A stretch of 38,720 nucleotides of DNA from a virus: the IMG/VR virus record IMGVR_UViG_3300047325_000062, positions 1-38,720 of that record. The stretch is one strand, 5' to 3'. A program made the position numbers and the translations under genes. Positions 4,079 through 25,924 of the stretch are shown piece after piece (within the stretch, counting starts at the first letter, position 1; the number at the start of each line of letters is the position of its first letter). The notes beneath the pieces are model-generated. The model did no database searches, was not told the DNA's origin, and saw nothing but the letters and a program-made list of their open reading frames with translations.

Positions 4079-6046
4079 ATGTCCGGCTCAATCGACATTT
4101 CGAACTTGCCGTCCGACACGAGTGTCGGCAGCACGACCAATTTAGTCACGACGATCCCGCTTTCCGGTGGCGGCGGCAAGGTCGCGCCCATCGCAACGGT
4201 GATCGAGCGCGCTTTGCCTCTGATGCCTACTGTTTCGACGGTCGGCACGGCGGACATGGTGGCGGGCATCTTCAACGGATCCGCAGGCCTGGCGCCGGCC
4301 GATACCCTGCCTGCCGGCGCCCCTAACCTAGTGGTGGTCAGCCAGGCGGGTACGGTGTCTTCGGTGGGCACGCTCGACTTCCTCGGCCGCGTCCAGGTCA
4401 CAACCGGGGCCTCGGGCGTCGCCACGATCACGATCCTGACCGGCGGCGCGTCGGTCCCGTCAACCGGCATGGTGGCGAGCAACGGCACGAGCCTCATCAC
4501 CGCTTCACTCGTCGGCGCGAGTTACAGCAACGGCACCATGACCGTCAGCGGAGCCACAGTGCCATCCGCAGGCCTCGTGGGCAGCACCGGCAGCGCGCTG
4601 ATCGACGTGGCGTTCGTCGGCCCGGTCTCTTACTCGGCCGGCACCCTCACGGTGTCAGCTGCATCGGTCCCGTCTGCCGGCGCGGTCTACTCAAACGGAA
4701 CCACACTCGGGGCGCTGACTCTTGCGGGGCCTTTGTCGTACGCAACCGGCACCCTGACCTGCAGCGCCGCAGCGGTTCCCTCCTCGGGCGTGGTCTATTC
4801 GAGCGGTTCAACGCTCGGAGCCCTGACCCTGGCGGGGCCGGTCAGCTACTCGGCCGGCACCCTCACGGTGTCAGCTGCATCGGTCCCGTCTGCCGGCGTC
4901 GTCTATTCGACCGGCAGCGCGCTCGGAGCACTGACCCTCGTCGGCGCGTCTTACGCCAGCGGCACCCTCACCGTCAGCACTCAGGCGCCCAGCGCGGGGC
5001 TGGTTTATTCTACCGGCAGCGCCTTCGGCGATGCCACGCTTTCCGGGGCGACCTTTTCCTCGGGCACGCTTACGATCACCAATCAGGCGCCGGCAACCGC
5101 CGGCATCGTCTACTCGACTGGCAGCGCCTTTGCCCACACGACCCTGGCTGGCGCACTTTCGTACGCCTCCGGCACTCTGACCTGTTCGGCTGCGTCGGTC
5201 CCGTCGGCGGGTGTGGTCTATTCGAACGGCACGACGCTGGGGGCTCTGACCCTCGTCGGCGGGACTTATTCAAGCGGCACGCTGACCACCGGCGCCGCGT
5301 GGCAGATCACCGACGGCACCCACACCGTCACCGCGGTTTCCGATCTGATCATCAGCAGCGGCGGCACGCTATCGGGTTCCGGGACCGGCACCGCGACGGT
5401 GTCCTTCGGCGGCGGTTCCGGCACCGGTCCTGCATACGCTCCCGGGTGGGGCAATTATTACAGTTTTTCATCCGGCTCTTGGAATCGGCCGGCCGGTTCC
5501 ACTTGGACGTGGATGAATCAGCAGGGAGCGAGCTACACTGATATATCCGGCGGCCCGCTGCAAATATACGGAGGCACGCTTGGTTACTGGCACCTGCTTA
5601 CAAAAAGTGTATCAGGGAGTTTCGATCATACGTTTCTGTTTACCGCTAATGGACGGGTGGCCGGTGGCGATAGCATCGGCATAATTCTAGGCAACTCTTC
5701 TACCGGTAACTTCATGCCGTTTTACCTGTATTTCGGTTCGAATCCAATACAGCTTTATATTGACCATTGGAGCGGGCTCACGACAAGTCAGAGTTACGTT
5801 TCCCATCAATCTAACTATAATCCTTCTCCTTTGTTGGGTAATATGTTCGCCCTGCGTGTTACCAGTGACGGAACAACCCTCAAATTTTATTTTTCTTACG
5901 ATCCGGTGAACACCAACGCATTTTGCTATATATACAGCGAGACGATTGCCACTTATTTGACGGCGCTAGATACCATAGGGTTTGGCTATTACAACAACGA
6001 TACAACTAGCCAGTATACATCGATCGCGCTTTACGGCTTTGCGTGA
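4079..6046 (+). CDS. Tail fibre protein with about 8-9 tandem repeats of about 35 aa and an AT-richer lectin/jelly-roll-like C-terminal domain (655 aa)
   Basis: GAGAGGGG RBS. Repeats resemble SVPSAGVVYSTGSALGALTLAGPVSYSAGTLTVSAA. The C-terminal 170 aa (from about 5530) has clearly lower GC. Confidence 0.8.
   Translation: MSGSIDISNLPSDTSVGSTTNLVTTIPLSGGGGKVAPIATVIERALPLMPTVSTVGTADMVAGIFNGSAGLAPADTLPAGAPNLVVVSQAGTVSSVGTLDFLGRVQVTTGASGVATITILTGGASVPSTGMVASNGTSLITASLVGASYSNGTMTVSGATVPSAGLVGSTGSALIDVAFVGPVSYSAGTLTVSAASVPSAGAVYSNGTTLGALTLAGPLSYATGTLTCSAAAVPSSGVVYSSGSTLGALTLAGPVSYSAGTLTVSAASVPSAGVVYSTGSALGALTLVGASYASGTLTVSTQAPSAGLVYSTGSAFGDATLSGATFSSGTLTITNQAPATAGIVYSTGSAFAHTTLAGALSYASGTLTCSAASVPSAGVVYSNGTTLGALTLVGGTYSSGTLTTGAAWQITDGTHTVTAVSDLIISSGGTLSGSGTGTATVSFGGGSGTGPAYAPGWGNYYSFSSGSWNRPAGSTWTWMNQQGASYTDISGGPLQIYGGTLGYWHLLTKSVSGSFDHTFLFTANGRVAGGDSIGIILGNSSTGNFMPFYLYFGSNPIQLYIDHWSGLTTSQSYVSHQSNYNPSPLLGNMFALRVTSDGTTLKFYFSYDPVNTNAFCYIYSETIATYLTALDTIGFGYYNNDTTSQYTSIALYGFA
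4450..5290 (+). repeat. In-frame tandem repeat region (about 105-bp units) inside the tail fibre gene
   Basis: Periodic SxPSxG(V/L)VYSxGSxxG...SG TLT(V/C)S motif. It includes an exact 52-bp duplicate, 4631-4682 = 4847-4898. Confidence 0.85.
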
Positions 6047-8062: not shown

Positions 8063-9163
8063 ATGCCAGCGGGCGTTCCCTATACCTTTTCGCCGGGCAC
8101 GACTATTGCTTCCGCGCAAGTGAATGCGAATTTTCAGGCGCTGATAAACTACCTCAACGGCTTGAATATCCCAACGACTCCTGTGTCGATAGCGAACGGC
8201 GGCACCGGATCGGCCACGGCAGTAGCGGCGCTGGAAGCTCTTGGACTTGCCACAGGCACCATCATTCCGTGCAGCGCGGCATATTCCGGAACGCTCATCC
8301 AGCTGACAGGCGCAAGCACGGCGCCGGCGGTCACGGCGTACAAGGCCGGCACGACCTATGTGTTTTTGGCACCCGGCAGCCTCAGCGGCCCCTTTACCGT
8401 CCAGGACGTGACCACAAGCGGTTCCGGCCTGGCCGCGCTTCCGCTCAACGATTCCCCTGGCTTTTCCAACACGGCCAGCCTGCAGGCGAACCAGCTGTGC
8501 CTCATCACCTACTCGGCACAGTCCAACAGTTTCGTCCTGATCAACCCCGTTTCGTCGAGCAGTGTCGCCGCGCGGTTTGCCACGTTCAACGCATCCGGCA
8601 CTCTGACGGTCCCGGCCGGGGTCACTTCGATGTATGCGACGGGATGCGGCGGTGGCGGTGGGGGCGGCGCCAGCAACGGGGCGAATTTCGCCGGCGGGTC
8701 AGGTGGTGGCGGGGCAGCGGCCAGCATGGATGTGCCGATCACCGTGACGGCCGGCACTGTCCTGACCATTACAGTCGGCGCGAGCGGAGCTGGAGCGGTT
8801 TCGACGGCCGGCACGCAAGGAGGCACGAGCGCGATCGTCAATTCCTCATCGGCCACGCTCGTATCGTGGACTGGGGGGCAGGGCGGCGTATTAGCAAGCG
8901 GCACGAGTGACACGACCGGCGCGGCGGCTGGCGGAACGGGCGGCATTTCCGGCGGCAATGGAAAGTTTGTCACATCGAGTTTTGGCGCGGGCGGTTTCGG
9001 CGGCGGGTGCCTTCTGGGTGGCGGCGGGGTAGGCGGAGCAGGGGACCTGCCGGGCCAGTCGCCCGGTCAGTTCGGCGGCGGAGGCGGAGGCGGCGGATCG
9101 GGAACCGCAGGCGGCGCCGCGGGCGGAAATGGGGCGCCCGGGACGGTAAGATTGAGGTGGTAA
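8063..9163 (+). CDS. Tail fibre protein with a glycine-rich C-terminal domain (366 aa)
   Basis: AGGAG RBS. The N-terminus ...ASAQVNANFQALINYLNGL... is typical of phage fibre N-termini. The C-terminal half carries FNASGTLTVPAGVTSMYATGCGGGGGGGAS followed by long G-rich tracts. Confidence 0.7.
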   Translation: MPAGVPYTFSPGTTIASAQVNANFQALINYLNGLNIPTTPVSIANGGTGSATAVAALEALGLATGTIIPCSAAYSGTLIQLTGASTAPAVTAYKAGTTYVFLAPGSLSGPFTVQDVTTSGSGLAALPLNDSPGFSNTASLQANQLCLITYSAQSNSFVLINPVSSSSVAARFATFNASGTLTVPAGVTSMYATGCGGGGGGGASNGANFAGGSGGGGAAASMDVPITVTAGTVLTITVGASGAGAVSTAGTQGGTSAIVNSSSATLVSWTGGQGGVLASGTSDTTGAAAGGTGGISGGNGKFVTSSFGAGGFGGGCLLGGGGVGGAGDLPGQSPGQFGGGGGGGGSGTAGGAAGGNGAPGTVRLRW

Positions 9164-9188
9164 CTACCGGAATTATACGCTTTAGGGC

Positions 9189-9217
9189 TTGATGCCTAAA
9201 CCTTGATCGGCTACATT
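9189..9217 (+). promoter_or_regulatory. Candidate sigma70-type promoter (TTGATG-N17-TACATT) upstream of the 9260 gene and packaging genes
   Basis: Hexamers were read directly: -35 at 9189-9194 and -10 at 9212-9217, with a 17-nt spacer. It lies in the 96-nt gap after the fibre gene. Confidence 0.3.
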
Positions 9218-9259
9218 CCTGCTTACCCGCGCCTCGGGGTTCAGGGACGGAGACGACAC

Positions 9260-9613
9260 ATGACAATGGAAACTACTCAATACATCGTTGAGTTGATTCC
9301 GAATACCGCCGTCGAAAAGGTATATACCAAACACCGGGCCGAAATCGATGCGGGCGCCAGCGTTTGGGATTTCACACAGCCTGAGTATCTTACCCAGAGC
9401 CTGACGGCGAGCACCGAAAAAGAAGCATGGGATTGCGCGAAACGACACATCGAGGTTGACGAATTTGGCGAGGTTCATGTCCTGAAACAGGACCGGCGCA
9501 AGTTCCGTGACGATCAAGAATCGTGGGCTGATTGGATCACGACGGCGCGGGCAGTCGTTTATCATGACACTACGGAATTTGATTGGGACATGTGCGATTG
9601 CGGGGAGGATTGA
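9260..9613 (+). CDS. Hypothetical protein (117 aa)
   Basis: In-frame ATG at 9260 within track ORF 9203..9613, preceded by GGGACGGAG. GC is lower than its surroundings. No motif recognised. Confidence 0.55.
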   Translation: MTMETTQYIVELIPNTAVEKVYTKHRAEIDAGASVWDFTQPEYLTQSLTASTEKEAWDCAKRHIEVDEFGEVHVLKQDRRKFRDDQESWADWITTARAVVYHDTTEFDWDMCDCGED

Positions 9614-9710
9614 GCCATGGTCAACCATCCCAACCGGACGAAAACCATTCCTGTCATGCCGCTTGGAACCGATCCGTGATTTCTCCCGGCAACAAGATGG
9701 TGTCCGGACA

Positions 9711-10301
9711 ATGATCAGCATCGTCGAAGTCTATCGCCGCTGGCCCGACCACGCGGCGTGCATCAAACACCTTGAAGCGGTGCGGTGGGGCGAAAGCCCC
9801 ACCTGCACTTATTGTGCGTCGGAGAAGGTGTCGAAACACCGCGAGGCGCACCGGGACAGGTGGCAGTGCCAGGCGTGCAAAAAGAGCTTTTCCGTTACGG
9901 TCGGCACGATTTTCCACAACACCCATATCGACCTGCAACGCTGGTTTTTGCTGGTCTCTCTGATGCTGAGTGCGAAAAAAGGTCTGTCCTCCATGCAGGC
10001 CGCGCGAGACATCGAAATTCGCCAGCCCACGGTCTGGTCGATGATGCACCGCATTCGGAAAGCGATGACGGACGACGGCGCGCTGCTGACTGGACTGGTC
10101 GAGATGGATGAAACCTACGTCGGCGGTAAACCCAGGAAGGCCAACCGTCACTCTGATGACCCACCGGGCGGTCAAGGCGTTTCGACCAAACTGCCGAAGA
10201 GTGACGGTTGGCCTTCCTGGGTTTACCGCCAACGCGTTCGGCCTCGCGCTTCATCTTGCGGTTACGCCCCAAAGTGTATAACTCCGGTAACGACGGACTA
10301 A
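9711..10301 (+). CDS. IS1595/ISXO2-type transposase N-terminal fragment (zinc ribbon + HTH), with the DDE domain truncated
   Basis: The sequence reads RWPDHAACIKHLEAVRWGESPTCTYCAS...WQCQACKKSFSVTVGTIFHNTHIDLQRWFLLVSLML...LTGLVEMDETYVGGKPRKANRH. This matches the Zn_Tnp_IS1595 N-terminus and the first motif (VE.DETY.GGK) of the ISXO2-like DDE domain. The ORF then runs into the second arm of an inverted repeat and stops. TAATG overlap with terL. Confidence 0.75.
   Translation: MISIVEVYRRWPDHAACIKHLEAVRWGESPTCTYCASEKVSKHREAHRDRWQCQACKKSFSVTVGTIFHNTHIDLQRWFLLVSLMLSAKKGLSSMQAARDIEIRQPTVWSMMHRIRKAMTDDGALLTGLVEMDETYVGGKPRKANRHSDDPPGGQGVSTKLPKSDGWPSWVYRQRVRPRASSCGYAPKCITPVTTD
10122..10230. repeat. 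Perfect 33-bp inverted repeat (10122-10154 / 10198-10230) with a 43-nt spacer
   Basis: GGCGGTAAACCCAGGAAGGCCAACCGTCACTCT and its exact reverse complement. Both strands therefore encode GGKPRKANRHS. Confidence 0.95.
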
Positions 10302-12325
10302 TGCTGATCGACCTCACCGAAACGGACGCACTCTGGCGCGACATCGAGACCCAGCGGCTTCGTCGCGATTTGCTTCGGTGCCTGAAGGACGATCCGATTC
10401 GCGCGCATGCAATCGTCTTTAGTGATGCTCACCAGTTCCCGGATCCGCCTTTCCACGCACAGATGCTGCGGAATTTCCACTCCGACAATCCGCGTGAGGT
10501 AATAGAAGCCTTTCGAGGCGGCGCGAAATCCACCCGCGCTGAAGAAGCCATTGCAATACGCATGGCGGCAGGACTTTTCAAATATGGTCTTCTATTATGC
10601 AATACTTACAGCAAGGCGGTTCAAAGACTTTCGTCTATCCGCTCTATTATTGACAACAACCCCGTCATCAACCGTCTGTTCGGCGATCTGCACGGCGACG
10701 TGTGGAACGAAAGCCGCATCCGGCTGACGAACGGCGTCACACTGGCCGCGCATGGCGCGCGAATGAGCATGCGCGGACTGAAGGAAGGCGACAGCCGGCC
10801 CGACTTCTGCCTGATCGACGATCTTGAGGACGAAGAATGGATCAGCACGCCGGAAGCGATCGAGGCGAACAAGCTCTGGCTTTTCCGCGAGTTGGTTCCG
10901 GCTCTCGCGTCCTTTCGCACGCCTATCCGGATGATCGGGACCCCTCTTGCTGACAACTCTCTGTTGCGGCAACTGGCTCACTCAGACGAGTGGCACGCGG
11001 CGCGCTTTCCGGTGCGGTATCTGGACGCGGAAGGTCAGTTGACTTCTGCGTGGCCGGAAAACGAGCGTTTTACGTTGGAAGCGATTGCCGACATCGAACG
11101 GCGCTATACAGAGCTGGGGGCGCATACTGTCTTCATGCAAGAGTACATGTGCGAAGCGACCTCGCCCGTAGACAAGGTTTTCACTTCGGCGATGCTCCGG
11201 TGCGAGCCGCGCATTCGCACCTGGCAGGCGGTCTACGCGATGATCGACCCGGCCCGAACCACCCGCTCCACCAGCGCCCAGACTGGTCACGCGGTTTGGT
11301 CGTGGGCGCCCGGCGGCCGGCTGGACGTGTGGGAATGCGGCGGCGATTTCCTGCAACCCGACGCCATCGTCAATTTGCTATTCCGCCTCCACGAAACCTA
11401 CCGCCCGGTCGAGATCGGCGTCGAACAGGACGGGCTCGAAGAGTGGATGATGCAGCCGATCCGCCACGAGCAAGCCAAGCGAGGCGTCATCCCGGTCCGC
11501 CCGGTGCGAGCGCCGCGAGGCAAGATTGACTTCATCAAAGGACTGCAACCCTTCCTGGCTGCAGGAACCGCGGTTTTCTGCCTCGAACCCGGCGAAACCG
11601 AAGGCAAATTCCGCAACGCATGGTCGCAATTCCTCTCCTTCCCGCGTGGCGTGATCGACGCACCCAACGCACTGGCTTACGCTACCAGCTTACGGCCCGG
11701 CATCCCGGTCTATGCCGACTTCAGCTTCGAATGCGTGGAGATCGACCCGCAGCCGATGCCCGGTCGGCCGCATGTGGCTTGCTGGAATGCAGACGGCAGC
11801 AGGGTGACTCTGTTGCTTTGCCAGGAATACGCGGGCGTGCAACGGATCATGGCGGAATGGATCGATGAGGGACAACCCGCCGATGTGGTCCCGGACCTTG
11901 CGCGAGCTGCGGCTTTGGTGGCGGCCGGGCCCCTCATCCACTGCCTGGGGCCTCAGCACTTCGAACGGTACACCAATGTCGGGCTGCACCAGGCACTGCT
12001 TCGGGCGCGATGCGAGCCACGGCCTGGGGCTGATACGCTTAAGGGCCGGGTGGAAGTGCGGGCTATGCTCAAGCGCAGGTCGCGAGGCCTGCCGGGGTTG
12101 ACCGTGTCGCAAACCTGTCGATTTGCCCTCAACGCATTTTCGGCCGGCTTTGCGTTCCCAGTACAATATAACAACGTGGCCAAGGAGCCCGGCCCTGGGC
12201 TATATCGGACCCTGATCGAAGGGCTAGAGAACTTCGTGGGGTCTGCGGTGCTGCCCGATCGCGACGAAGAGGGGTTGTTCCGCGAAACGGCCGATGGGCG
12301 GCGGTATCGGAGTGCAATGCGATGA
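10301..12325 (+). CDS. terL: Terminase large subunit (674 aa from ATG 10301)
   Basis: P-loop-like FRGGAKST. Walker-B-like PDFCLIDDLEDEE. A C-terminal RNaseH-like nuclease begins at YAMIDPARTT. It sits immediately upstream of the portal gene. The track ORF starts at 10208, but that extension is the repeat arm. Confidence 0.85.
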   Translation: MLIDLTETDALWRDIETQRLRRDLLRCLKDDPIRAHAIVFSDAHQFPDPPFHAQMLRNFHSDNPREVIEAFRGGAKSTRAEEAIAIRMAAGLFKYGLLLCNTYSKAVQRLSSIRSIIDNNPVINRLFGDLHGDVWNESRIRLTNGVTLAAHGARMSMRGLKEGDSRPDFCLIDDLEDEEWISTPEAIEANKLWLFRELVPALASFRTPIRMIGTPLADNSLLRQLAHSDEWHAARFPVRYLDAEGQLTSAWPENERFTLEAIADIERRYTELGAHTVFMQEYMCEATSPVDKVFTSAMLRCEPRIRTWQAVYAMIDPARTTRSTSAQTGHAVWSWAPGGRLDVWECGGDFLQPDAIVNLLFRLHETYRPVEIGVEQDGLEEWMMQPIRHEQAKRGVIPVRPVRAPRGKIDFIKGLQPFLAAGTAVFCLEPGETEGKFRNAWSQFLSFPRGVIDAPNALAYATSLRPGIPVYADFSFECVEIDPQPMPGRPHVACWNADGSRVTLLLCQEYAGVQRIMAEWIDEGQPADVVPDLARAAALVAAGPLIHCLGPQHFERYTNVGLHQALLRARCEPRPGADTLKGRVEVRAMLKRRSRGLPGLTVSQTCRFALNAFSAGFAFPVQYNNVAKEPGPGLYRTLIEGLENFVGSAVLPDRDEEGLFRETADGRRYRSAMR

Positions 12326-12525
12326 GCGGACTGTCTGAGGGGGAACAAGTCATTGTCGGCGCCGGCGGCGCAACGTGGGACATGCCCCCAGGGCTGAAGA
12401 TCGCTCGACAGCAAGCGATCGAGGTCACAGAGGCGATCATTTTCCAGGACCGAGAGGATAGCCCTCATTCGCTGGCGCTGACAATCGTGGACTGCCTCAT
12501 TGCGCGATGGCTGATCCGTGGCTAA
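12322..12525 (+). CDS. Hypothetical small protein between terminase and portal (67 aa)
   Basis: ATGA overlap with the terL stop. Its own stop overlaps the portal GTG start. Confidence 0.5.
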   Translation: MSGLSEGEQVIVGAGGATWDMPPGLKIARQQAIEVTEAIIFQDREDSPHSLALTIVDCLIARWLIRG

Positions 12526-14617: not shown

Positions 14618-15297
14618 AAGACGGTCAAACCGGTGACATGATGGACATTCCGCCGCGGCGCGAGCCTTTGCGACTAGCGGCCTTCATGATGCGGCTTTTC
14701 CTCGTCTTGTACGTGGTCGGCATAATCACCGCGATTTTAGTCATGGTGATTTGCTGGGCTTTTCGGCAGCCCGCCAGAGCCGCCACCACGCCGAATTACT
14801 TCTACGAGTACACCGCCGTCGCGTTTACCGAAAACTCGGCCAACGCGGTGGCCACAGTCATGCCGCAGCGATCGGTGCCCTACACACTTCTATCCCTGTG
14901 CTCCGAGGACGGATACCAGTCTGCCTGGGCGAACGCTTTTCCGTTCCTGGCTGCAGGCATGACGGGACAGGTCGCAGGGGTCTGCACGCCGATTCAGACG
15001 ACATACGGCACCGCGAACGCAATCATGGTCATCAGTCTTGTCGGCCCGAACCGGCCGCTCTGGCAGATGGTGATCCCGTGGGCGACGCAAACCCTCTGCC
15101 GCGCGAACATCGACAACGTAACCGACCTGCAGGCATTCCTCGGCACATTTCTGATGGGATCGTTCAACAACTTGATCCCGATGCCGGTCACACTGGCCGG
15201 CAGCAGCATGTCCACTCAAGCGCAGTATCAGGCAACAGACGTGGCTGGCGGCACCGATAACGTGACGGTGGCCTGTCCTCCTGGCGGACCTACCTAG
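14614..15297 (+). CDS. Membrane-anchored hypothetical protein (227 aa)
   Basis: ATGA overlap with the portal stop. One strong N-terminal TM segment (LRLAAFMMRLFLVLYVVGIITAILVMVICWAF) is followed by a Cys-containing extracytoplasmic domain. Confidence 0.6.
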   Translation: MKDGQTGDMMDIPPRREPLRLAAFMMRLFLVLYVVGIITAILVMVICWAFRQPARAATTPNYFYEYTAVAFTENSANAVATVMPQRSVPYTLLSLCSEDGYQSAWANAFPFLAAGMTGQVAGVCTPIQTTYGTANAIMVISLVGPNRPLWQMVIPWATQTLCRANIDNVTDLQAFLGTFLMGSFNNLIPMPVTLAGSSMSTQAQYQATDVAGGTDNVTVACPPGGPT

Positions 15298-16625
15298 TCT
15301 GCTTTGTAGTCCATGCCGACCGCATATCCGTGCGCTTGAAGCTTCGGCAGCTGGATCTGCAAGCGCCGCCCGATATCGCCGCGCCACATCGGCGAGTTGG
15401 GCAAGCTCACGCTTTCGAGACACTGGTAAGCATGCCGCCGGGCTTCCTCGACCGTTTTCCCTAACCCGCTGGCGACCAGCACATAGGTCCCAGCAGTCAC
15501 CGGACACGGCACATCGTCCATCACCATCCCGTCAATCGACTGCGGAGCGGTGCCTTGTGCCATTTCGCAGAAATGCAGGTTGCTCATCCTGCCCGGCTTC
15601 ACCCCATAAACCGGGATCTCGGCCACGTCCGAAAGTGGAAACTTATTGTACGGATAATCGGGGATGCTCATCACCACCCCAGCCGCTACCGAATTCCACA
15701 CGCACTGTCCAATCGGCGCGCCAGCTGCAAGCGCCAGCATCCAGTCCGCGGGGCAGCCTTCATGCGTCGCCTGTTGAATGTTGAACGTGGGCCAGCCAGG
15801 CCGCATCGTCCATTCGAGGGGCCACGGATTGCCTTCGTCATCAATGATGCAATTGACATCAACGTATCCGACATGCCCCGTTTTCACGATGTCGGCTTCA
15901 AATGGTTTCAAGACCTTATCGGCAAGCTTTGATTTGCCGGCGTAGCGAAGGACGGTACCTTGTTCTCCCGTTTGTGGGCCCCTCTCACCGTCCATCAGCT
16001 TCTTAAACTCGAAATTCTCGCACCATCCACCATCGAACCCGTTAGGCCCGATCCAGCCGCCGACCGCCATTTCAACGCCGGAAACCTTTTCCTGCAGAAT
16101 GAACGGTGATTTGAGCTTCCCCAGCTTTTTCCATCGCTGAAGCATATAGACGAGGTCTTCGGGTGACTTAGCGACGTAGGACAGCGCCTTGTCTGCATCT
16201 CCCGACGGCTTTGAGACGAACGGCCGATCCTCTTTCTTCACGTAGGCGATGGCTTTGTCATAGTCGCTGAAGCAGCGGCTTGCGGGAACGGCGATGCCTT
16301 TTTTTCGGAATTGGGCCATTCCAACGTCGCGATCTAGCTCCCATTCCGAGCTTTCGGGGGTTGCACCGAACACGTAGGCGGAGCTGCCCGTGGTGCGGAT
16401 CACATCGCGGACTTCAGACAGGTAGGCGGTATTGTCGGTCAAGAAGATCAGATCGGCCCAGCGCACCCATTCGCGCCAGTTCGCAACCCTGCGAATAAGC
16501 CCGCGGCCGATCAGAGCAAGGCGAGGCTTGTCCGGAATGTAGAGCCGAACATCGTGGCCGGCGCGCTGCGCGCGCATGCACCAGTCCAGACCGTTACCGC
16601 CGGCATCAAGGACAAGTGCCCGCAT
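15294..16625 (-). CDS. PurD-like ATP-grasp enzyme (phosphoribosylamine-glycine ligase family fold, 443 aa)
   Basis: Colinear with E. coli PurD, recalled from memory. N-terminus MRALVLDAGGNG vs MKVLVIGNGGRE. FVSKPSGDADK vs IVIKADGLAAGK. GPQTGEQGT vs GPNTGGMGA. GNPWPLEWTMRPGWP vs GNPKVIEFNCRFGDPE. TAGTYVLVASGLGKTVEEARRHAY vs TNGGRVLCVTALGHTVAEAQKRAY. Confidence 0.8.
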   Translation of the reverse strand: MRALVLDAGGNGLDWCMRAQRAGHDVRLYIPDKPRLALIGRGLIRRVANWREWVRWADLIFLTDNTAYLSEVRDVIRTTGSSAYVFGATPESSEWELDRDVGMAQFRKKGIAVPASRCFSDYDKAIAYVKKEDRPFVSKPSGDADKALSYVAKSPEDLVYMLQRWKKLGKLKSPFILQEKVSGVEMAVGGWIGPNGFDGGWCENFEFKKLMDGERGPQTGEQGTVLRYAGKSKLADKVLKPFEADIVKTGHVGYVDVNCIIDDEGNPWPLEWTMRPGWPTFNIQQATHEGCPADWMLALAAGAPIGQCVWNSVAAGVVMSIPDYPYNKFPLSDVAEIPVYGVKPGRMSNLHFCEMAQGTAPQSIDGMVMDDVPCPVTAGTYVLVASGLGKTVEEARRHAYQCLESVSLPNSPMWRGDIGRRLQIQLPKLQAHGYAVGMDYKAD

Positions 16626-16627
16626 GG

Positions 16628-16834
16628 TCAGCAGAAACGCCGGCCGCGCTCATACTCTTCGCGCTTATCCATCGCCCTGTGCTCAACGACGCCATCGACA
16701 CGCTCAGGACCGCACCAACACTCGGCGCTCGGCTCATGGTCACGCAAATCGTCGATGGGGATGAGTTGCGGTTCTCCACCGTCGAACAAAACCAGCCAGC
16801 CGCTGGCGTGAGCAGTCCCATCACTCGTCTGCAT
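16628..16834 (-). CDS. Hypothetical small protein (68 aa) with an ECWCGP motif
   Basis: Complete ORF 2 nt upstream of the ATP-grasp start. Its start overlaps the stop of the upstream acidic ORF. Confidence 0.55.
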   Translation of the reverse strand: MQTSDGTAHASGWLVLFDGGEPQLIPIDDLRDHEPSAECWCGPERVDGVVEHRAMDKREEYERGRRFC

Positions 16835-16964
16835 CGTCTTCCTCCATTTCCTCGTCCGGTTCGCCCTCTGGATCGCCGCATTCCTCTTCCTGATGTACCG
16901 CGTCGGTTTCGACCGGCGAGTTTACCGACGGGTCGAGATCGTCATCAGGCCCGGATTGTGGCAT
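16821..16964 (-). CDS. Possible very acidic small protein (47 aa, 21 D/E, no K/R)
   Basis: Hand translation gives MPQSGPDDDLDPSVNSPVETDAVHQEEECGDPEGEPDEEMEEDDADE. It is below the length cutoff of the ORF track. AAGGTG lies about 13 nt upstream. It fills the gap between the 789-aa gene and the 68-aa gene. Confidence 0.4.
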   Translation of the reverse strand: MPQSGPDDDLDPSVNSPVETDAVHQEEECGDPEGEPDEEMEEDDADE

Positions 16965-16987
16965 AAAGTACCATGCACCTTTCAGAG

Positions 16988-19357
16988 CTAGTTGAGCGCA
17001 CTTGCGTCTTGTGGCTGATCGGACTCCTGCTCTCCCTGCCTAGAGTTAGTCGCCAGCGTTCCCGCCCGCCGGAAGTTTTCAATATACGCCCTCGCCTTCG
17101 GGCTGGGGACCATGCTCAACAGCGTCCGGCCCCTCTGCGTATCGAGGTTAACCGTCGGGTCAAATAGCAGCCGCGCCATCGCCTCATTCACCTTTTTGTC
17201 GCCGATGATCCCGAGGTCACGCTTGGCTTTGAGGAAGTCGCCTACCGCGCCGAAGTAATTTCCGCCGGCCGCTTTCACCAAGCCCTTCGTAGCATTGGCA
17301 GCAGCGCCCATGCCAAGTTCCGCATCTTCCGCCTGACGCTCCGCTGTTTGCGAGCCGCCTAGTCGCTTACCGGCCTGAACGAAGACTGTACGTTCGTCGG
17401 TCACTGCTTGAATAAAATCGTCAAACTTTTTTTGACTGCTGAACAATGGACGCAAGCGCTCTTTTATCATGTCGTTGAAGTCGTTCTTGTCCAAACCTCG
17501 CGCCGACGGGGACTTTGGCCCCGCCTTGCTAATCTCGTCTCTCCACCAATCCGCAACCCCCAGCTTAAAATGCTCTCTCTCCGCAGGACTCAAGGGATTC
17601 CAAACCTCTTGGACCTCTTCTGGATGCATGCGAAATATGTTGCGACCTTGCAAGACTAGGCCCGCGGCCTTCGCCGGCCCTGCCCAAGCTGCGCGAGCCT
17701 CTTTGTAAACCGGATTGATTTCGTCGATCTGATCCAGAAAATCCCTCCTGATCGTGTTGAGATTTTGAGCAATCTGACCTCGATCTCCGCCGTTCATGAA
17801 GTCCAGCTTGCCGGTCAGAGGATCGCGGAAGTCCTCTATGATCTTATCCATGCCTTTCTTGATGCTGTCGAGCAACCTCATATTCGGAACCCGATCGACA
17901 ATCGGCTCACCGGACTTGTCGTAACCTGTGATTGCATAATCGCGCGGATTGAACGGCTTTCGGTCTGCCAGGGCTTCAATACGTTGCACTTCAAGCCCTC
18001 TGGCGATCGCAGGCTTCATAATGGGATCGGAGATAATTTGCTGAATGTACGGGGACCATACGCCACCGCGCTGCCCCGCCGCCGCGGCTGACTGAGCCTC
18101 GCGGAGCCTGGCGAGAACCGCTTGCTTGGCTTGAACTGCGGCCTGAGCTTTCTGCTGCGCCTCTTGCAAAGCCGTTCGAGCCTGCGCCTGTTCTTTCAGC
18201 GCCGCACTCGCCATGTAGACGTTATCGCCGGCCCGCGAGACTTTGGCAGCAGCCACCGTCATCGCATTCTGGGCTTTCTGAAGATCCTTTCGAGCCTCCG
18301 ATTCGGCTTTCGACGTGTCGCGGAACACACCCTCAAACTGTTTTTCCAGGGGCGCAACACTGCCAGGCGCCATTGCTTTTTCGTAAAGCGGCGCCGCCGC
18401 GGCTTTCTGCGCAGCGGTCAAGGCTTTAACCGATTGCCGCATAGATGGCCCGGAACTGATGTGCGCGGCACCTATCTGGGTGAGCCTGGCGCCGGCCTCC
18501 CGCATCTGGTTTTTCGCTTGCTCCTCAGCGATGGACTTTGGCGGCCCCGGCTTTCGCGAAAGGCTGCCAGCCAAGCCCTGCACGTTTTTGCCTCCGGCAT
18601 CCGCAAGCGCCATCGGCGTGCCGCGCGCCCTGGCCGCATTGACCGCGGCGATCGCCTCTGTCGCGGACGGACCACCGCCTTTCTCATCGTCCGAAAACCG
18701 TTGCAGGACCTTCGCAACGGCCTGTGCCTGGGCCCTGTCAGCAGCGCCGGCCGGGGTCAGAGTGTTCAGGATCGCCTGCCTGGCAGGGCCAAGGGCGTGA
18801 AACAACGCGCCGAGTCCCGTCGCGGTCGCAGCTCCCTCCGCTGCGTTCTTCGCGCGCTCGAAAATTGGGCTGTCGCTTGTCGTCGGCTGCATGGCGCCGG
18901 TCGCGGCCCCCATGCCCGCGCCCTTCAGCAACCCAGCACCGCGGACGGCATAGTTCAGCGGATTGATCGCCTCTCCGACTGTGTCATGCACGTCGAAAGC
19001 GCCTGGAGCTAATCCAGCTTGCTGTCGAAGACGCCCCTTTGCGCCTTGCAGAGCAGCAGCCGCATCGTCATACCCCTGCTGCCGGTCTTTACCGATGATC
19101 CCGAGCCGCCCAGCTACATCTGCGGTACCCTGCATGATCCCGACCGCCGGCGTCGCAAACCCCAAAAGCATGCGCTCGGTTTGGTTCCACGGACCGGGTC
19201 TGGCCGCTGTTTGTGCAGACGCCGGCGATTGCGGGGTCTGTTGTTGGGTCTGCTGTTGATTCACCATCGGTGCTGCCATCCAGGCAGGCCGCGCCCCCTG
19301 TCCAGGCTGCGCGCCCTGGCTGACAATCGGCGCGCTCATCCAGTCTGGATCGGCCAT
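16988..19357 (-). CDS. Large virion-associated (internal/ejection-type) protein, 789 aa
   Basis: TGATG coupling to the upstream gene. Q-rich N-terminus, long Ala-rich helical segments, no enzymatic motif recognised. Function is inferred from size and context in a podovirus-like genome. Confidence 0.5.
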   Translation of the reverse strand: MADPDWMSAPIVSQGAQPGQGARPAWMAAPMVNQQQTQQQTPQSPASAQTAARPGPWNQTERMLLGFATPAVGIMQGTADVAGRLGIIGKDRQQGYDDAAAALQGAKGRLRQQAGLAPGAFDVHDTVGEAINPLNYAVRGAGLLKGAGMGAATGAMQPTTSDSPIFERAKNAAEGAATATGLGALFHALGPARQAILNTLTPAGAADRAQAQAVAKVLQRFSDDEKGGGPSATEAIAAVNAARARGTPMALADAGGKNVQGLAGSLSRKPGPPKSIAEEQAKNQMREAGARLTQIGAAHISSGPSMRQSVKALTAAQKAAAAPLYEKAMAPGSVAPLEKQFEGVFRDTSKAESEARKDLQKAQNAMTVAAAKVSRAGDNVYMASAALKEQAQARTALQEAQQKAQAAVQAKQAVLARLREAQSAAAAGQRGGVWSPYIQQIISDPIMKPAIARGLEVQRIEALADRKPFNPRDYAITGYDKSGEPIVDRVPNMRLLDSIKKGMDKIIEDFRDPLTGKLDFMNGGDRGQIAQNLNTIRRDFLDQIDEINPVYKEARAAWAGPAKAAGLVLQGRNIFRMHPEEVQEVWNPLSPAEREHFKLGVADWWRDEISKAGPKSPSARGLDKNDFNDMIKERLRPLFSSQKKFDDFIQAVTDERTVFVQAGKRLGGSQTAERQAEDAELGMGAAANATKGLVKAAGGNYFGAVGDFLKAKRDLGIIGDKKVNEAMARLLFDPTVNLDTQRGRTLLSMVPSPKARAYIENFRRAGTLATNSRQGEQESDQPQDASALN

Positions 19358-20925
19358 CAGGGTTTCCTGCGATGCGATCCGTCAGGTGCGATGAATTCTG
19401 CGCCAGACGGCAACTTCGCATAGTCGGCATCGGATTTGATCTGCGGCACACCCGAATCCCCCGGCCTTGACATGATATCACGCCCGGTTTTCTGCGAAGC
19501 CGTTTGTGCTCGATCAAGTTCCTGCATGATCTGGTCAGTCGCCGCGCTGATCTGGCCCTTACTCCATGCCTGATTCAGTAAACCATTCGCCTGCTCCCGA
19601 CTTGAGTTGGTCGCCGCGCCACCGCCATTGAGAAGGCGAGCGTAAATGTCCCTGACCGTTGCTACCGCAATGCCGAGACGGACCACGTTCGTATCACCTG
19701 TTCCCTTCTGTGCTGCCTCGATTAATTTGTTTACGGAAGGATATTCTGTTCTGTCGACCTTTGCCGACAACTCGTTGACCACAGGAATGGTCGCACGAGT
19801 TTCGTTGCCCAGCTGATCGAGAGGCACGGTCTTTTTCGCAAGTAGCCGCGCTGAGGTAATCAATCGGGCGTTATTCACCAGGAAGTCCTGCATGTCGTCT
19901 TCAGTGTAATTCGGGTGCTCCTCCTTCCACTTCTGCATGAGCATGCCGGTTGCCGTCTTAGGACCGGTATTCTGCCCAAGACGCGACATGCCGGCCGGTG
20001 CGCCGTCCATCGGAACGACTTCGCCGGTTCTGGCATTGCCACGATAAATCTTGCCGTCCTTGCCGGTGAAAATCTGCCAACCGCGTTGTGACAACCCTTG
20101 AGTCGCCAGCGCCATGGTCGCCTCACGCATTGCCATGCTGTCCGCATGAGACTGAGCGGTAGCCGCACGAGTTAGACGACGATCTTCCTCCGTATCCTCG
20201 TGCGCGGCCAAGCGATCGCGCTCCGATTGCTGGTATTGGAGCTGCTCTCGCCGCGCGTTCCACTGCTGCATAGCTTGAGGATAGAACTGCTGTGCCGTGG
20301 CAATGATCGCTTGCGGAGGAGGGTTCAGACCTTTTTGCTGGGCTCGGCGCGCTAGCGCCTGCGCGAGAGTTTGGAGCGAAGGAGGTGGACCGAGTGAATC
20401 CACACCCGGTGACTGGCTCATAGACTGACCAACCGGAATTGCCGGCGCACCTTGGCGCTGCGCTCCCGGCTGCATAAGACCCTGCGGCGGTAGACTAGGA
20501 GACATTCCGCCGGCCATCATCCCTGTCGGAGCGCCCATCGAGTTAGAAGGCGGCGCGCCTTGCGGCATCGGTCGCGCTCCAGGCAATCCACCTTGCATCC
20601 CGCCGGCGGCCGGAGGCTGGCCAGGCATTCCGCCAGCCATTCCACCAGCGGGCATTCCCTGCGCAGGCATCGGCTGATTTACGCTGTAAGGCTGCACCGG
20701 CAAGCTAGACGGCTGATCGCCTTGCGCATCAGCCAGCGCACCGTACACATCAAGCTTGCCTTGCCAGCCCGCTATCTGCGCCTGCTGTTGCATGGCCTGC
20801 AGCTCGACCTGCTTCTGCTGCATTTCGATCTGCGCCAGCTTCATCCGCTTCTGGCGGTCAATCTGGTCCTGATAGGTGTCGAGGGCGGTTGATAGTCCCT
20901 TTAGAAATCCCAGTCCGGCAGGCAT
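19357..20925 (-). CDS. Low-complexity (M/G/P/Q-rich) virion-associated protein, 522 aa
   Basis: N-terminal coiled coil (QKRMKLAQIEMQQKQVELQAMQQQAQ). It is followed by about 150 aa such as GMPAGGMAGGMPGQPPAAGGMQGGLPGARPMPQGAPP, then a globular C-terminal half. TAAATG coupling to the upstream gene. Confidence 0.5.
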   Translation of the reverse strand: MPAGLGFLKGLSTALDTYQDQIDRQKRMKLAQIEMQQKQVELQAMQQQAQIAGWQGKLDVYGALADAQGDQPSSLPVQPYSVNQPMPAQGMPAGGMAGGMPGQPPAAGGMQGGLPGARPMPQGAPPSNSMGAPTGMMAGGMSPSLPPQGLMQPGAQRQGAPAIPVGQSMSQSPGVDSLGPPPSLQTLAQALARRAQQKGLNPPPQAIIATAQQFYPQAMQQWNARREQLQYQQSERDRLAAHEDTEEDRRLTRAATAQSHADSMAMREATMALATQGLSQRGWQIFTGKDGKIYRGNARTGEVVPMDGAPAGMSRLGQNTGPKTATGMLMQKWKEEHPNYTEDDMQDFLVNNARLITSARLLAKKTVPLDQLGNETRATIPVVNELSAKVDRTEYPSVNKLIEAAQKGTGDTNVVRLGIAVATVRDIYARLLNGGGAATNSSREQANGLLNQAWSKGQISAATDQIMQELDRAQTASQKTGRDIMSRPGDSGVPQIKSDADYAKLPSGAEFIAPDGSHRRKP

Positions 20926-21753
20926 TTACCAGCCTCCTTGGTCAGAACCCGCACCTGACCAGATATTGCCTCCACCCCCGCCCATACCAAAAATGTTGGA
21001 CAGGCTACCTCCCGGTTGGAAGCCTCCGAGAAGGGTACCGGCGACGCCGCCAAGATCTTGCCAGAATGATTGATTCTGCTGCTCTTCCGCCCCGTACTGC
21101 TGCATCTGATCGCCAAACACCTGCTGGACCCAGTTGCCGGCTGTGTTAGTCGGGCTGCTGTACAGACCCTGCTCCGTCTGCAACGCGTTCAAACTCGCGT
21201 TGTTGATCGTGTTGCTCGTGGAGTAGGGCAACGCTGATCCGGCAGCACCGAGGTTCGTCCCCGCGCCGTAGCCCGAGGCAGCCGAGTCCAGAAGCGAGTC
21301 GTAGCTGCTGATGCCCTGGGATTCGCGCTGAAGCTGGTTGTTCTGCCAGTCGATATTAAAGTTGGACAGGGCCTGGTCCATCACCCCTTGCCCAAACGGT
21401 GTGGAGCCAACCCCGGAGGCGGCCAACTGCGCGCCAGCCTGGTCCTGCACCTGCTGTTGCGTGCGAGCATACAGCAGGTTTTGAGGGTCGAATGCGTTGG
21501 TCAGGATCTGCTGGCCATAGGGCAATGCGGAGTTCACAGACGAGAACAGATTACCCGATCCGGCTTGCGCCTGGCTGCCAGTCAGATTAGCGCCGCTCTG
21601 ATACCCGCCGGCGTACTGGTTGTTGATGATCCCGGAAACCGGCGCTGCGGCCTGCCCTGCAATCCCGTACTGCGCGTTCAGCCCGCTGTTGAAAATGCTC
21701 TGGGCATTACCGGTGCTAGGGGCTTGTGGGACCGATGGGCTGCCCATCCTCAT
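20926..21753 (-). CDS. Q/N/G/S-rich hypothetical protein, 275 aa
   Basis: Complete ORF, translationally coupled downstream. Composition is dominated by Q, N, G, S and A, and there are no charged clusters. Confidence 0.5.
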   Translation of the reverse strand: MRMGSPSVPQAPSTGNAQSIFNSGLNAQYGIAGQAAAPVSGIINNQYAGGYQSGANLTGSQAQAGSGNLFSSVNSALPYGQQILTNAFDPQNLLYARTQQQVQDQAGAQLAASGVGSTPFGQGVMDQALSNFNIDWQNNQLQRESQGISSYDSLLDSAASGYGAGTNLGAAGSALPYSTSNTINNASLNALQTEQGLYSSPTNTAGNWVQQVFGDQMQQYGAEEQQNQSFWQDLGGVAGTLLGGFQPGGSLSNIFGMGGGGGNIWSGAGSDQGGW

Positions 21754-23128: not shown

Positions 23129-23542
23129 CTATTTCGCCACAGCCCCAGGCCCGATGCCCAGCAGCTCGTGGATCACCGCAAAAGCCTCATCCAGCCGCTT
23201 CTGATCCGCCGGCGACAGGTGGCTGATGTCCACCACGCGGCCATCCTCCGCCGGCGGTAGGTCGCTGACCTTGCCGAGCCCCCGGTCCAGCACCTGCTGC
23301 AGATTGATCGTCCGCACCCGGCTGTCCGGATCGTAGAGGGCCAGCCTGATGGTCTCGTCCACGGCCTCAGGCGAATAGTCGGCCATCCGCCGGGCAGCGG
23401 CCTTCTTGAGAGCCCGGATGCTCGACCGCCCGGCTGCAGAGCCCGAGGACGAGGTCCATGGCCTCAGCGCGCCCCCATGAGGCTGTGGGATCAGATCGTC
23501 AGACACAGCCGCCGATGCGCGCCTGCGGCCACGCTGCTCCAT
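23129..23542 (-). CDS. Hypothetical protein (137 aa), a possible small-terminase-like or DNA-binding protein
   Basis: First gene downstream of the iteron region. The ...PHGGALRPW... and ...RVRTINLQQVLDRGLGKV motifs recall helical small-terminase-type proteins. This is memory-based and unverified. Confidence 0.3.
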   Translation of the reverse strand: MEQRGRRRASAAVSDDLIPQPHGGALRPWTSSSGSAAGRSSIRALKKAAARRMADYSPEAVDETIRLALYDPDSRVRTINLQQVLDRGLGKVSDLPPAEDGRVVDISHLSPADQKRLDEAFAVIHELLGIGPGAVAK

Positions 23543-23583
23543 TTAACCACGGTGATGCCGCTCACACGACGCCCGAGTAGGGT

Positions 23584-23804
23584 GCGCCAAAAGCGCGCCA
23601 AAAGCGCGCCAAATCCAAGCCTTTGAAAACTCACGAAAGATGGCGAAAAACGCGCCAAAAACGACGAAAAACGGCGCCTAAGGATGATGGTTAGCGCCAA
23701 ATAGGGGGGTTTTACCCCCCCTATTTGGCGCAAACCATCCATCGGCGAAACGAAATTGCGCCAAAAGCGCGCCAAAAGATGGGTTGATTTCGGGCATTTG
23801 GCGC
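23584..23804. promoter_or_regulatory. Iteron cluster with a 16-bp-stem palindrome: putative replication origin or operator region
   Basis: GCGCCAAA(A/T) occurs in direct orientation at 23584, 23595, 23606 (11-bp phasing), 23652, 23694, 23758 and 23769. It occurs inverted at 23724-23731 and 23797-23804. Phased A-tracts lie at 23642-23675. A perfect hairpin pairs 23694-23709 with 23716-23731. Confidence 0.6.
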
Positions 23805-23825: not shown

Positions 23826-25055
23826 TCATGTTGGCCTCTTCGAGTCATCCACTCTGACGCCGGTGAGGTTCTTCCGGGTAGCCGGGTGGCGGAAGTCTGA
23901 TTCGAACAATAAACCCGTATGGAGCCAGGCATCAATCATTGCTTGAGCTTGGGACTCGCTGACGTCGCAATGCCGTCGGATCACATCTCCGGCCCATCGG
24001 CCGGATCGCCCCCGAGCAGTGGCACCATACAGGACGCCGGGCTCTGGGCCGTCCGCCAGGTGGTCCAGGACGAGGGAGATCTGCTCCGGCGTTTGATGTG
24101 AGAACAATTTCGGTGGCGACCACGGCACGATGGCCGCCACGGTGTCGCCGTTCTGGTAGATAGGATCGGTATTTCCGAGCATCACTTGCTCAAGCCGGAA
24201 CCAGGTCGCTCGGTCTATCCTGGGTGAGAGATTGACCTTGCCGTCATCGACTCGGATGTAAGTGAATCGCTCCTCGACGGGTATATTAAGGGCCGCTGCC
24301 TCGTCTGCGGTCATGGTTTGCATAAGCAGACCGACCCTGGCGGAATCAGTCAGGCCCTTGGCGCCCCTGGCGGCCTCGATCGACCCCTCTATCGCGCCTT
24401 TTCGGACGTGGTGCACAAGGAGGATCGAGCAGCCTGTCGTACGGGCAACCCTTCGCCATGCCCGTGCCGCGGCGATCATGTCGGGATTGGAATTCTCTTC
24501 GAGGGAATGTGACTCGGCAAAGGGATCAATGACTAGGAGCCCGATCTCATGTTCGGTGATCTGATCGATCAGAGCGGCCTCGTCCGGGTAGACCACGCTG
24601 TAGCCGTCCGGACCGCGTTCGGCCATCCTCACCAGCCGGTCATCCATGGAATTGAGAAAGTAGCGTCCGACTACGTCCTGACTGTCTATTTTGTGCCGGA
24701 TCATGATGGCAGCGAGTCTGCGCTCAAGCTCCTCCATCGGGTCCTCGTTTATGATGGCGACGTTCACACGCTGCCAGACATGGAGATCGAGGAGCTTTTT
24801 TTTGGTGGCCAGAGAAAGGCCCGCAGTCATTGCATATATGCTCTTACCGGTTCCGCCTGGGGCCACCAGGACCGTGACGAAGCCTTTGAGCAGCTGGGTC
24901 CCGAGCAGCCACTGGCGGGGCAGGATCGTCGCGGGATCTGGTAATCTGGCTGGAGTGAAGACAAGCGGAGTCGATGTCTCGTCATCATGGGACGAGACTG
25001 GGTGTATCCCCCAAATTATGTCATCTCGACGCAATGCGGCGTTGCGATTGTGCAT
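23826..25055 (-). CDS. RepA-like (AAA_25/RecA-fold) replicative helicase/ATPase (409 aa)
   Basis: Walker A VLVAPGGTGKSIYAM. Walker B GLLVIDPFAESH. ILLVHHVRKG is typical of RSF1010 RepA / phage-plasmid primase-associated helicases. Confidence 0.75.
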   Translation of the reverse strand: MHNRNAALRRDDIIWGIHPVSSHDDETSTPLVFTPARLPDPATILPRQWLLGTQLLKGFVTVLVAPGGTGKSIYAMTAGLSLATKKKLLDLHVWQRVNVAIINEDPMEELERRLAAIMIRHKIDSQDVVGRYFLNSMDDRLVRMAERGPDGYSVVYPDEAALIDQITEHEIGLLVIDPFAESHSLEENSNPDMIAAARAWRRVARTTGCSILLVHHVRKGAIEGSIEAARGAKGLTDSARVGLLMQTMTADEAAALNIPVEERFTYIRVDDGKVNLSPRIDRATWFRLEQVMLGNTDPIYQNGDTVAAIVPWSPPKLFSHQTPEQISLVLDHLADGPEPGVLYGATARGRSGRWAGDVIRRHCDVSESQAQAMIDAWLHTGLLFESDFRHPATRKNLTGVRVDDSKRPT

Positions 25056-25778: not shown

Positions 25779-25924
25779 ACTACGACCCCGTCCTTGCGCG
25801 ACCGCTCCAAAGCGCGCCGCACCGCCGCTGTCTGGCGTTTGGCGAGCATGCGCTTCAACGCCGGCGACAGAGGCCGCTTCGGCTTGAAGGGGGACGGCTT
25901 ACTAGTCGGGGTTTTATCACTCAC
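25775..25924 (-). CDS. Possible 49-aa basic peptide (GTG start)
   Basis: Hand translation gives VSDKTPTSKPSPFKPKRPLSPALKRMLAKRQTAAVRRALERSRKDGVVV. Its stop overlaps the next ATG (ATGA) and its start overlaps the nuclease stop. It contains one copy of the 31-bp repeat. Confidence 0.35.
   Translation of the reverse strand: MSDKTPTSKPSPFKPKRPLSPALKRMLAKRQTAAVRRALERSRKDGVVV

Follow-up and report, generated by a model that had tools for sequence, protein, structure and literature searches.

Within a phage genome of 38,720 nt from IMG/VR (record IMGVR_UViG_3300047325_000062; this whole stretch is called the window below), an open reading frame (ORF) of 196 aa lies directly upstream of terL, the gene encoding the large terminase subunit (TerL). 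In our assessment, the region around this ORF, i.e. positions 9169–10285, is likely to be a degenerate insertion sequence (IS) of the IS1595 family with passenger genes, and its transposase gene would carry the fold-back scar of a replication template switch. A previous sequence-only reading had offered a decaying IS insertion with such a scar as one of three possibilities. We favour it because the region is bounded by terminal repeats and a probable target duplication, contains a second eroded gene and has differently truncated copies in other phages, and because a full-length relative defines a loss of 370 bp that was replaced by an inverted copy of 29–33 nt.

The inverted repeat and the interrupted transposase gene

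The perfect 33 bp inverted repeat with a 43 nt spacer pointed out in the sequence-only reading was found as described (10122–10154 and 10198–10230), and it forms the core of slightly longer arms of 37 nt with one mismatch (10118–10154 and 10198–10234; 97 % complementary). This is the longest inverted repeat of the entire contig. When only perfect inverted repeats within 200 nt were considered, the longest one in the window measured 33 nt, as compared to a mean of 11.4 nt and a maximum of 13 nt in 60 shuffled sequences.

The best relative of the ORF in a large protein set is a full-length transposase of 303 aa (P0001), which shows 96 % aa identity over residues 1–162. Its contig (L005) aligns with the window in two blocks, i.e. 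L005 positions 559–1045 with 9711–10197 (89 % identity) and 1416–1486 with 10227–10297 (90 %). The 370 nt in between (L005 1046–1415) are without counterpart in the window and are replaced by 29 nt (10198–10226) for which L005 has no collinear sequence. The homology thus does not break off at the first arm, as had been supposed, but continues through this arm and the spacer up to 10197 (residue 162, ...STKLP), the second arm being the foreign part. At its right junction, the inverted copy of 29–33 nt shares a 4 nt microhomology, CGCC (10227–10230), with the resumed native sequence. The lost 370 bp encode residues 163–286, including the conserved motifs TTDENRAY and NTIEGFW, i.e. the rest of the DDE domain, and the net change of −341 nt compared to the ancestral gene results in a frameshift. 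The gene is nevertheless not reduced to zinc ribbon and helix–turn–helix (HTH), as its last 17 codons and the stop codon persist in another frame at 10228–10281.

Domain searches led to the same picture. The zinc ribbon Zn_ribbon_IS1595 (PF12760) was matched at ORF residues 13–58 (Pfam, E=2.3e-8, 34.3 bits versus a cut-off of 25.4), and its four cysteines are invariant in our alignment A2, as expected for the zinc-binding domain of the IS1595 family. The NCBIfam model transpos_IS1595 (NF033547) scored 80.7 bits (cut-off 75) over profile positions 1–82 of 215, in line with the truncated IS1595-type transposase with N-terminal zinc ribbon and HTH that had been recognized from the sequence. Over residues 32–143, NCBIfam also indicated a weak similarity to the IS1 family. 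For DDE_Tnp_IS1595 (PF12762), just profile positions 2–24 of 153 were found in the ORF, with 19.5 bits remaining below the cut-off of 27, and neither Pfam nor NCBIfam detected the complete DDE catalytic domain of the family in the window copy. Because this domain is incomplete, while P0001 possesses all 215 positions of NF033547 (181 bits), the window copy appears to be a defective derivative of an IS1595 family member and not an autonomous IS. The 196 aa ORF itself has the appearance of a catalytically dead fragment.

The last 34 residues of the ORF apparently represent nothing but the translation of arm 2 and the out-of-frame 3′ remnant. Among the best 120 matches in a set of 5.8 billion protein clusters, no protein shares this tail (query coverage ≤94 %), and P0116, the match of greatest coverage, has an unrelated tail. 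A blastn search with positions 9200–12400 against 50,697 records of cultured phages gave no match, and tblastn with the 196 aa ORF against the same records returned distant transposases only. As had been noted, the stop codon TAA (10299–10301) shares one base with the start codon of terL (ATG, 10301–10303). This TAATG overlap seems to be an accident of the reading frame, with TAA merely being the first stop in that frame.

The repeat is probably not a product of the assembly. The contig ends (1–127 and 38594–38720) are 100 % identical over 127 nt and define a closed circle of 38,593 bp, which was probably closed by a de Bruijn assembly with k=127, the value of k being deduced from the overlap. 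Since the fold-back comprises 117 nt and is shorter than this deduced k, read-derived k-mers would span both arms. In addition, the phage is covered at 100 % identity by contigs of a Logan k=31 assembly of run ERR9963758, one of which (L010) stops at 10151 and another (L006) restarts at 10201. These are exactly the last and first 31-mers outside a 33 nt perfect inverted repeat, as expected if the repeat is present in the reads, and in L006 the arm 2/3′ remnant junction is found with 100 % identity.

The following course of events would explain this structure. An IS1595-family element would have transposed into the spacer of around 10 nt that separates terL from the tail-fibre gene in a circular phage genome of about 38.6 kb, and its transposase gene would later have been inactivated by a single template-switch event during replication. 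In this event, the nascent strand would have left its template at 10197, copied the opposite strand from 10154 back to around 10122, and rejoined 370 nt downstream at the microhomology CGCC, thereby deleting residues 163–286, shifting the frame and creating the 33 bp inverted repeat as a by-product. The hairpin would accordingly be a scar and not an evolved site. A second deletion would have removed most of the neighbouring passenger gene 2.

In the four-point model that describes template switching, the product consists of the sequence from L to point 1, the reverse complement of points 2 to 3, and the sequence from point 4 to R, and the order 3-2-1-4 is one of two common patterns that yield a single perfect inverted repeat (PMC7954356). 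Here, the points would be 10197, 10154, around 10122–10126 and, in the ancestral gene, 370 nt past point 1; their order is 3-2-1-4, in agreement with the model. Also in keeping with a template switch, positions 10198–10230 equal the reverse complement of 10122–10154 at 33 of 33 positions, and the flanks align with L005 at 89–90 %.

The IS1595-family element and its relatives

The interrupted gene is part of a larger element extending from around 9169 to 10285, which is bounded by terminal inverted repeats of 24 nt and a probable 8 bp target duplication (Table 1). The terminal repeats were found by scanning the flanks for inverted repeats, and their presence at both ends is a feature of IS1595 elements. 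The end motif TATRCRNTTTNGGGC has only two sites in the window (0.1 expected), i.e. one on the plus strand in the left repeat and one on the minus strand at 10266. It also occurs in plus/minus pairs around the same gene unit in L016–L019 and L034, and singly where the end of a contig or a deletion removes one side. The same element ends were seen in L016–L019, L032 and L034, i.e. at six or more other loci, and when the left ends and the reverse-complemented right ends of three elements were aligned, around 26 conserved terminal positions starting with GG became apparent. Of the probable target duplication, the two copies (GGTAACTA and GGTAACGA) match at 7 of 8 positions, which about 1.2 % of randomly chosen position pairs equal at the same tolerance. 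In L016, the duplication is perfect (9/9; ATTCTTTCC), while none is evident in L034. The family is known for an 8 bp target duplication, an N-terminal zinc finger and a C-terminal DDE domain, and GG at the termini is known from the related Merlin elements (PMC8101967). A possible sigma-70 promoter in the left repeat (TTGATG-N17-TACATT) remained below the scan criteria in the window.

Members of IS1595, an ISfinder family, include insertion sequences with passenger genes, as reportedly described by Siguier et al. in 2009. The passenger proteins of the window showed no Pfam, PHROG or NCBIfam family match, and the 117 aa product of passenger gene 1 has no relative in IMG/VR. This gene occupies, between conserved linkers, a slot that is held by an unrelated gene of 89–90 aa in L016 and L032. 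In L005, L016 and L032, the gene ahead of the transposase gene encodes 95–126 aa starting with MVNHPNR(G/S), and the linker at 9599–9636 is 85–88 % identical to these three loci. The two-gene passenger slot is marked by conserved linkers at 9226–9254 and 9599–9636 in the window, at 4376–4404 and 4665–4702 in L016, at 2661–2693 in L032 and at 162–199 in L005. Between the linkers the gene bodies are unrelated, and gene 2 always begins with MVNHPNR(G/S/T), whatever comes after.

Decay is common among the relatives. Two of 12 loci in IMG/VR look full length, while the others are truncated at residues 131–230, have an internal deletion, retain the C-terminus only or contain an inserted second copy. 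Truncations or internal deletions affect 9 of the 12 copies, at differing points and several of them at microhomologies; for instance, 67 nt were lost at a 7 nt microhomology in L034 and 453 nt, in frame, at a 3 nt microhomology in L041. In L032, where the element also follows a similar tail-fibre end, the transposase stops at residue 128, with a methylase fragment behind it, and in L033 it breaks off near residue 120. Since the flanks of the 12 IMG/VR copies share nothing with the window, the element seems to move between unrelated phages. The fold-back hairpin was absent from all relatives examined, and an exact search for the fold-back junction (CAAACTGCCGAAGAGTGACGGTTGG) in IMG/VR gave 0 matches. 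Conservation of the truncated form in related phages, which had been suggested as a check, was not observed either, as the relatives end at other points. An inverted repeat of 19 nt (84 %) in the same coding stretch of L007 was attributed to chance, given comparable pairs in the vicinity and a second arm that is not part of the element. Two loci contain more than one copy: in L035 (3001–4818) a second element, with its left repeat at 3667, is inserted in the transposase gene of the first, and L024 harbours a deleted copy (5001–5516) and an apparently full-length one (9947–10516) 4.4 kb apart.

Lineage-specific substitutions in the first 118 codons were counted as synonymous or non-synonymous. 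The counts were 8 and 2 for the window copy, 11 and 1 for the full-length L005, and 0 and 3, 5 and 4, and 7 and 4 for the truncated copies in L032, L033 and L035, respectively. In the latter three, non-synonymous changes equal or outnumber the synonymous ones or clearly exceed those of the full-length copy, and these copies look as if under relaxed selection, while the window copy seems either to have been broken recently or to remain under constraint. How many of the relatives' deletions are in frame as opposed to out of frame was not used as evidence, since the search reached only copies keeping the N-terminus. In another phage group, an in-frame allele without DDE domain (168–171 aa; L007 6001–6507 and L024 5001–5516) is found in many samples. 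Here, the N-terminal domain is fused to a C-terminal ..GVLHLA(L/V)(K/N)P with an apparently shared junction, the nucleotide identity is 74 %, and the ratio of non-synonymous to synonymous substitution rates (dN/dS) is 0.13 over 139 codons. This allele may be a zinc-ribbon/HTH protein that has been maintained long-term.

Table 1. Features of the IS1595-family element and the adjacent terL gene (positions refer to the window)
Feature	Position	Strand	Basis or remark
Left target-site duplication copy, probable (GGTAACTA)	9159–9166	+	Includes tail-fibre stop codon 9161–9163
Left terminal inverted repeat (IRL)	9165–9188	+	21/24 complementary to 10266–10289; element start probably GG at 9169
Passenger gene 1, 117 aa	9260–9613	+	Gene called at the same place in an independent assembly (L010 4392–4745)
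Passenger gene 2 remnant, 20 codons (MVNHPNRTKTIPVMPLGTDP and stop; MVNHPNRTKT...)	9617–9679	+	Translation; linker identity
Truncated transposase ORF (196 aa)	9711–10301	+	ORF containing IS1595 zinc ribbon/HTH
Transposase gene 5′ part, codons 1–162 (zinc ribbon, HTH, DDE start)	9711–10197	+	89 % nt identity to L005 559–1045; 96 % aa identity to P0001
Arm 1, native transposase coding sequence (VGGKPRKANRHS), template of arm 2	10118–10154	+	Collinear with L005
Spacer/loop, native transposase coding sequence (DDPPGGQGVSTKLP)	10155–10197	+	Collinear with L005, as far as L005 position 1045
Arm 2, putative inverted templated insertion, reverse complement of 10122–10154	10198–10234	+	Replaces 370 bp of the transposase gene
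Read-through tail of the 196 aa ORF (KSDGWPSWVYRQRVRPRASSCGYAPKCITPVTTD and stop)	10198–10301	+	Coding sequence: arm 2 plus out-of-frame 3′ remnant
Transposase gene 3′ end (ANAFGLALHLAVTPQSV and stop), last 17 codons and stop, out of frame with 5′ part	10228–10281	+	Translation; 94 % identical to P0001 residues 287–303
Right terminal inverted repeat (IRR)	10266–10289	−	Overlaps native transposase stop; element end around 10285
Right target-site duplication copy, probable (GGTAACGA)	10286–10293	+	Match to left copy
terL (674 aa), adjacent to the element but outside it	10301–12325	+	phrog_38, E=9.5e-49

terL, the small terminase and alternative explanations

The TerL relatives are 650–680 aa long, which is consistent with a start at 10301. 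If the element is excised in silico, the stop codon of the tail-fibre gene (TAA) is followed by around 10 nt and then by the ATG of terL, with GAGGTGGTAAC(T/G)ACGGACTAATGCTG as the predicted empty site. Because excision leaves only these 10 nt, the remnant would not sit in the former place of a small terminase (TerS) gene, and no TerS gene would have been displaced. That no conventional TerS is recognizable next to terL still holds, the 196 aa ORF having no TerS match in Pfam or PHROGs and no similarity to the Sf6-type TerS of L030, L031 and L024 (tblastn and a hidden Markov model (HMM) of the three sequences).

TerL itself has relatives of at most 51 % identity in IMG/VR and the JGI metagenomes and of at most 64 % in the large protein set. 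The two closest, L030 (64 %) and L031 (61 %), possess a gene of the Pfam family Sf6_terminase (PF20901) that overlaps terL, and no adjacent Sf6-type TerS was found in the more distant L001 and L004. In L001, there is an ORF of 70 aa which, by eye, we take to resemble a KTSC-domain protein. None of the TerL relatives L001–L004, L030 and L031 has an IS1595 gene, i.e. there is no conserved gene paired with terL at this position, and none of the IS copies in the 12 IMG/VR phages adjoins a related terL or TerS.

A weak candidate for a small terminase is an ORF of 137 aa on the minus strand (23129–23542), directly after the primase/helicase gene (23826–25055, minus strand). Its best PHROG is phrog_2538 (small terminase; E=0.0039), 5 of 56 relatives match this family, and the NV1 small terminase was found by Foldseek at a non-significant E=3. 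The TerS gene of L031 likewise follows a primase gene. Matches of the 137 aa candidate to PDB profiles of HEAT-like alphaRep repeats are probably spurious. Between this ORF and the primase/helicase gene, TGCGCCAAAAGCGCGCCAAAAG is present three times within 23583–23778, and an inverted repeat of 24 nt with a 6 nt loop is located at 23686–23739.

While the anatomy of the locus, the ends of the element, the end-points of the deletion and the decay of related copies can be read directly from the aligned sequences, we infer the template switch and the lack of function, and several observations weigh against the interpretation as a decaying IS with a template-switch scar. The left junction of the inverted insert is blunt, without microhomology, and its spacer/arm 2 boundary (10197/10198) was not seen in the second assembly. 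The target duplication of the window is imperfect, and TerL searches of IMG/VR, the JGI metagenomes and the large protein set revealed no relative with an empty site. The 162 N-terminal codons are intact and give no sign of decay, and the fragment they encode could still be expressed and bind DNA. Finally, no confident TerS was detected anywhere in the contig by tblastn with three Sf6-type TerS or by a local HMM against all six-frame ORFs, a search which also took in PHROGs on around 35 ORFs and Pfam on around 25.

A different explanation, which we consider improbable, is that the zinc-ribbon/HTH fragment was kept as a DNA-binding protein, acting either on the terminal repeats in the manner of InsA, with a possible effect on terL, or as a TerS-like packaging-specificity factor for which the palindrome would be the site. 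The ORF is unbroken and all its substitutions are conservative, its N-terminus weakly resembles the IS1 family, its stop overlaps the terL start, and the right terminal repeat stops 15 nt short of the terL ATG, so that binding there could modulate terL expression; its 34 C-terminal residues, however, look like translated junk, and among the relatives examined and the best 120 protein matches both this tail and the hairpin are confined to the present contig. A TerS-like role would suit a phage in which no confident TerS was found, considering that the closest TerL relatives have one overlapping terL, but L001 and L004 likewise lack an adjacent Sf6-type TerS, a weak candidate is encoded elsewhere in the contig, and excision leaves no TerS slot. 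Long-term retention of such fragments may be indicated by the DDE-less allele of L007 and L024 with its shared junction and low dN/dS, whereas the close truncated copies end at other residues, adjoin other genes such as the methylase fragment in L032, and seem to be under relaxed selection. With no former TerS slot and a hairpin that occurs in no relative, the domesticated TerS-like factor with a pac-like palindrome proposed in the sequence-only reading is thus unlikely. It is a little more doubtful still that the DDE-less fragment binds the right terminal repeat or the palindrome and thereby controls terL expression or packaging specificity, as part of a recurrent exaptation of IS1595 N-termini in phages.

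We regard it as very unlikely that the hairpin, having begun as a scar, is now kept for an effect on the terL transcript, e.g. as an RNase III site, a ribosome roadblock or an insulator from the operon of the element. The stem lies on the coding strand 66 nt upstream of the terL ATG and is indeed as stable as had been predicted, the 221 nt RNA folding at −109 kcal/mol versus −72.7 kcal/mol for shuffles (z = −7.7) and the DNA at −54 kcal/mol (z = −12). The perfect match of the arms, though, would result from copying, with one arm as the template of the other, and not from selection, there is no U-tract or terminator-like site at the stem, and with the hairpin known from this genome only there is no conservation to test. 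Rfam 15 returned only miRNA-precursor models (20–38 bits versus gathering scores of 67–100), as any long hairpin would.

Inverted junctions at short microhomologies are typical of amplification chimeras, and the fold-back, which is carried by one contig only and whose 10197/10198 junction has no match in the independent assembly, resembles these. Yet an inverted chimera generated while the library was prepared or amplified, or a mistake of the assembler, has very little probability in view of the closing overlap that exceeds the fold-back, the predicted breaks of the k=31 contigs at both arm edges and the arm 2/3′ remnant junction in L006, and also because a chimera formed at random would not end up as the consensus, a library-level chimera as consensus being conceivable but unlikely.

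Other features of the contig and comparison with known systems

Apart from the element, the contig shows several repeats. Around 18 tandem copies of a 57 nt unit (19 aa repeats) are located at 32187–33227 within an ORF (32119–33285), and a 95 nt piece of this array (32247–32341) recurs at 33974–34068 with 99 % identity. Two arrays with a period of 15 nt (27930–28227 and 28376–28733) flank the start of the ORF 28267–29058, beside a repressor-like gene (27440–27928, minus strand), and look like iterons or operators. An exact direct repeat of 31 nt is found at 25815–25845 and 32142–32172, i.e. 6.3 kb apart. Homologues of proteins of 522 and 789 aa are encoded after terL on the same strand in L031 (6144–9610), but on the opposite strand past the portal gene in the window (15294–21753, minus strand), which suggests that modules were shuffled, or a large segment inverted, in this group of phages. 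The portal protein shares 72 % identity with its L030 counterpart, an SU10-type adaptor protein is encoded at 2083–2805 (Pfam, E=4e-7), and a GcrA-like regulator (26428–27096, minus strand; E=1.5e-17) hints at an alphaproteobacterial host.

As regards annotation, the 196 aa ORF should be designated a mobile-element remnant and not a terminase subunit, which matters little for this window. Where the nearest TerL relatives have a TerS gene overlapping terL, this phage has no confidently recognizable one, which is a separate question. The remnant ORF now holds the position directly upstream of, and overlapping with, terL at which the Sf6-type TerS (PF20901) is encoded in L030 and L031. It differs from this protein in having no sequence similarity to it, another fold family and origin, and no known part for oligomerization or TerL binding, and the slot would have been absent before the insertion.

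The zinc-finger and HTH protein InsA of IS1, an example of regulators consisting of a truncated transposase, is a programmed product of the intact element. The window fragment resembles InsA in corresponding to the N-terminal part of a transposase; in contrast, it would have arisen by deletion, and its binding to the repeats or any regulation by it is hypothetical.

With short-range template-switch mutations and quasipalindrome-associated rearrangements (PMC7954356), the locus has in common that the reverse complement of a nearby sequence takes the place of a stretch, resulting in a perfect inverted repeat, as well as the point order 3-2-1-4 and the microhomology at the return switch. In contrast to these, the return jump skips 370 nt and also causes a sizeable deletion, the first junction is blunt, and the mechanism is deduced from one product. 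If correct, the locus is a clean natural example of one event that deletes a catalytic core and at the same time creates a long perfect hairpin, i.e. one route to new hairpins.

Regarding the IS1595 family, the element of the window shares the N-terminal zinc ribbon (PF12760) and what is left of the ISXO2-like DDE domain (PF12762, NF033547), short terminal inverted repeats beginning with GG, a probable target duplication of 8–9 bp and a compact organization in which the transposase gene runs into the right repeat. It differs in being non-autonomous, with around 40 % of its transposase gene missing and one of the passenger genes eroded, and in its location in a phage genome just upstream of terL. 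It thus appears to add a new but defective member to a known IS family, one that belongs to a lineage with a swappable two-gene passenger slot that is spread over unrelated phages and survives mostly as deletion derivatives.

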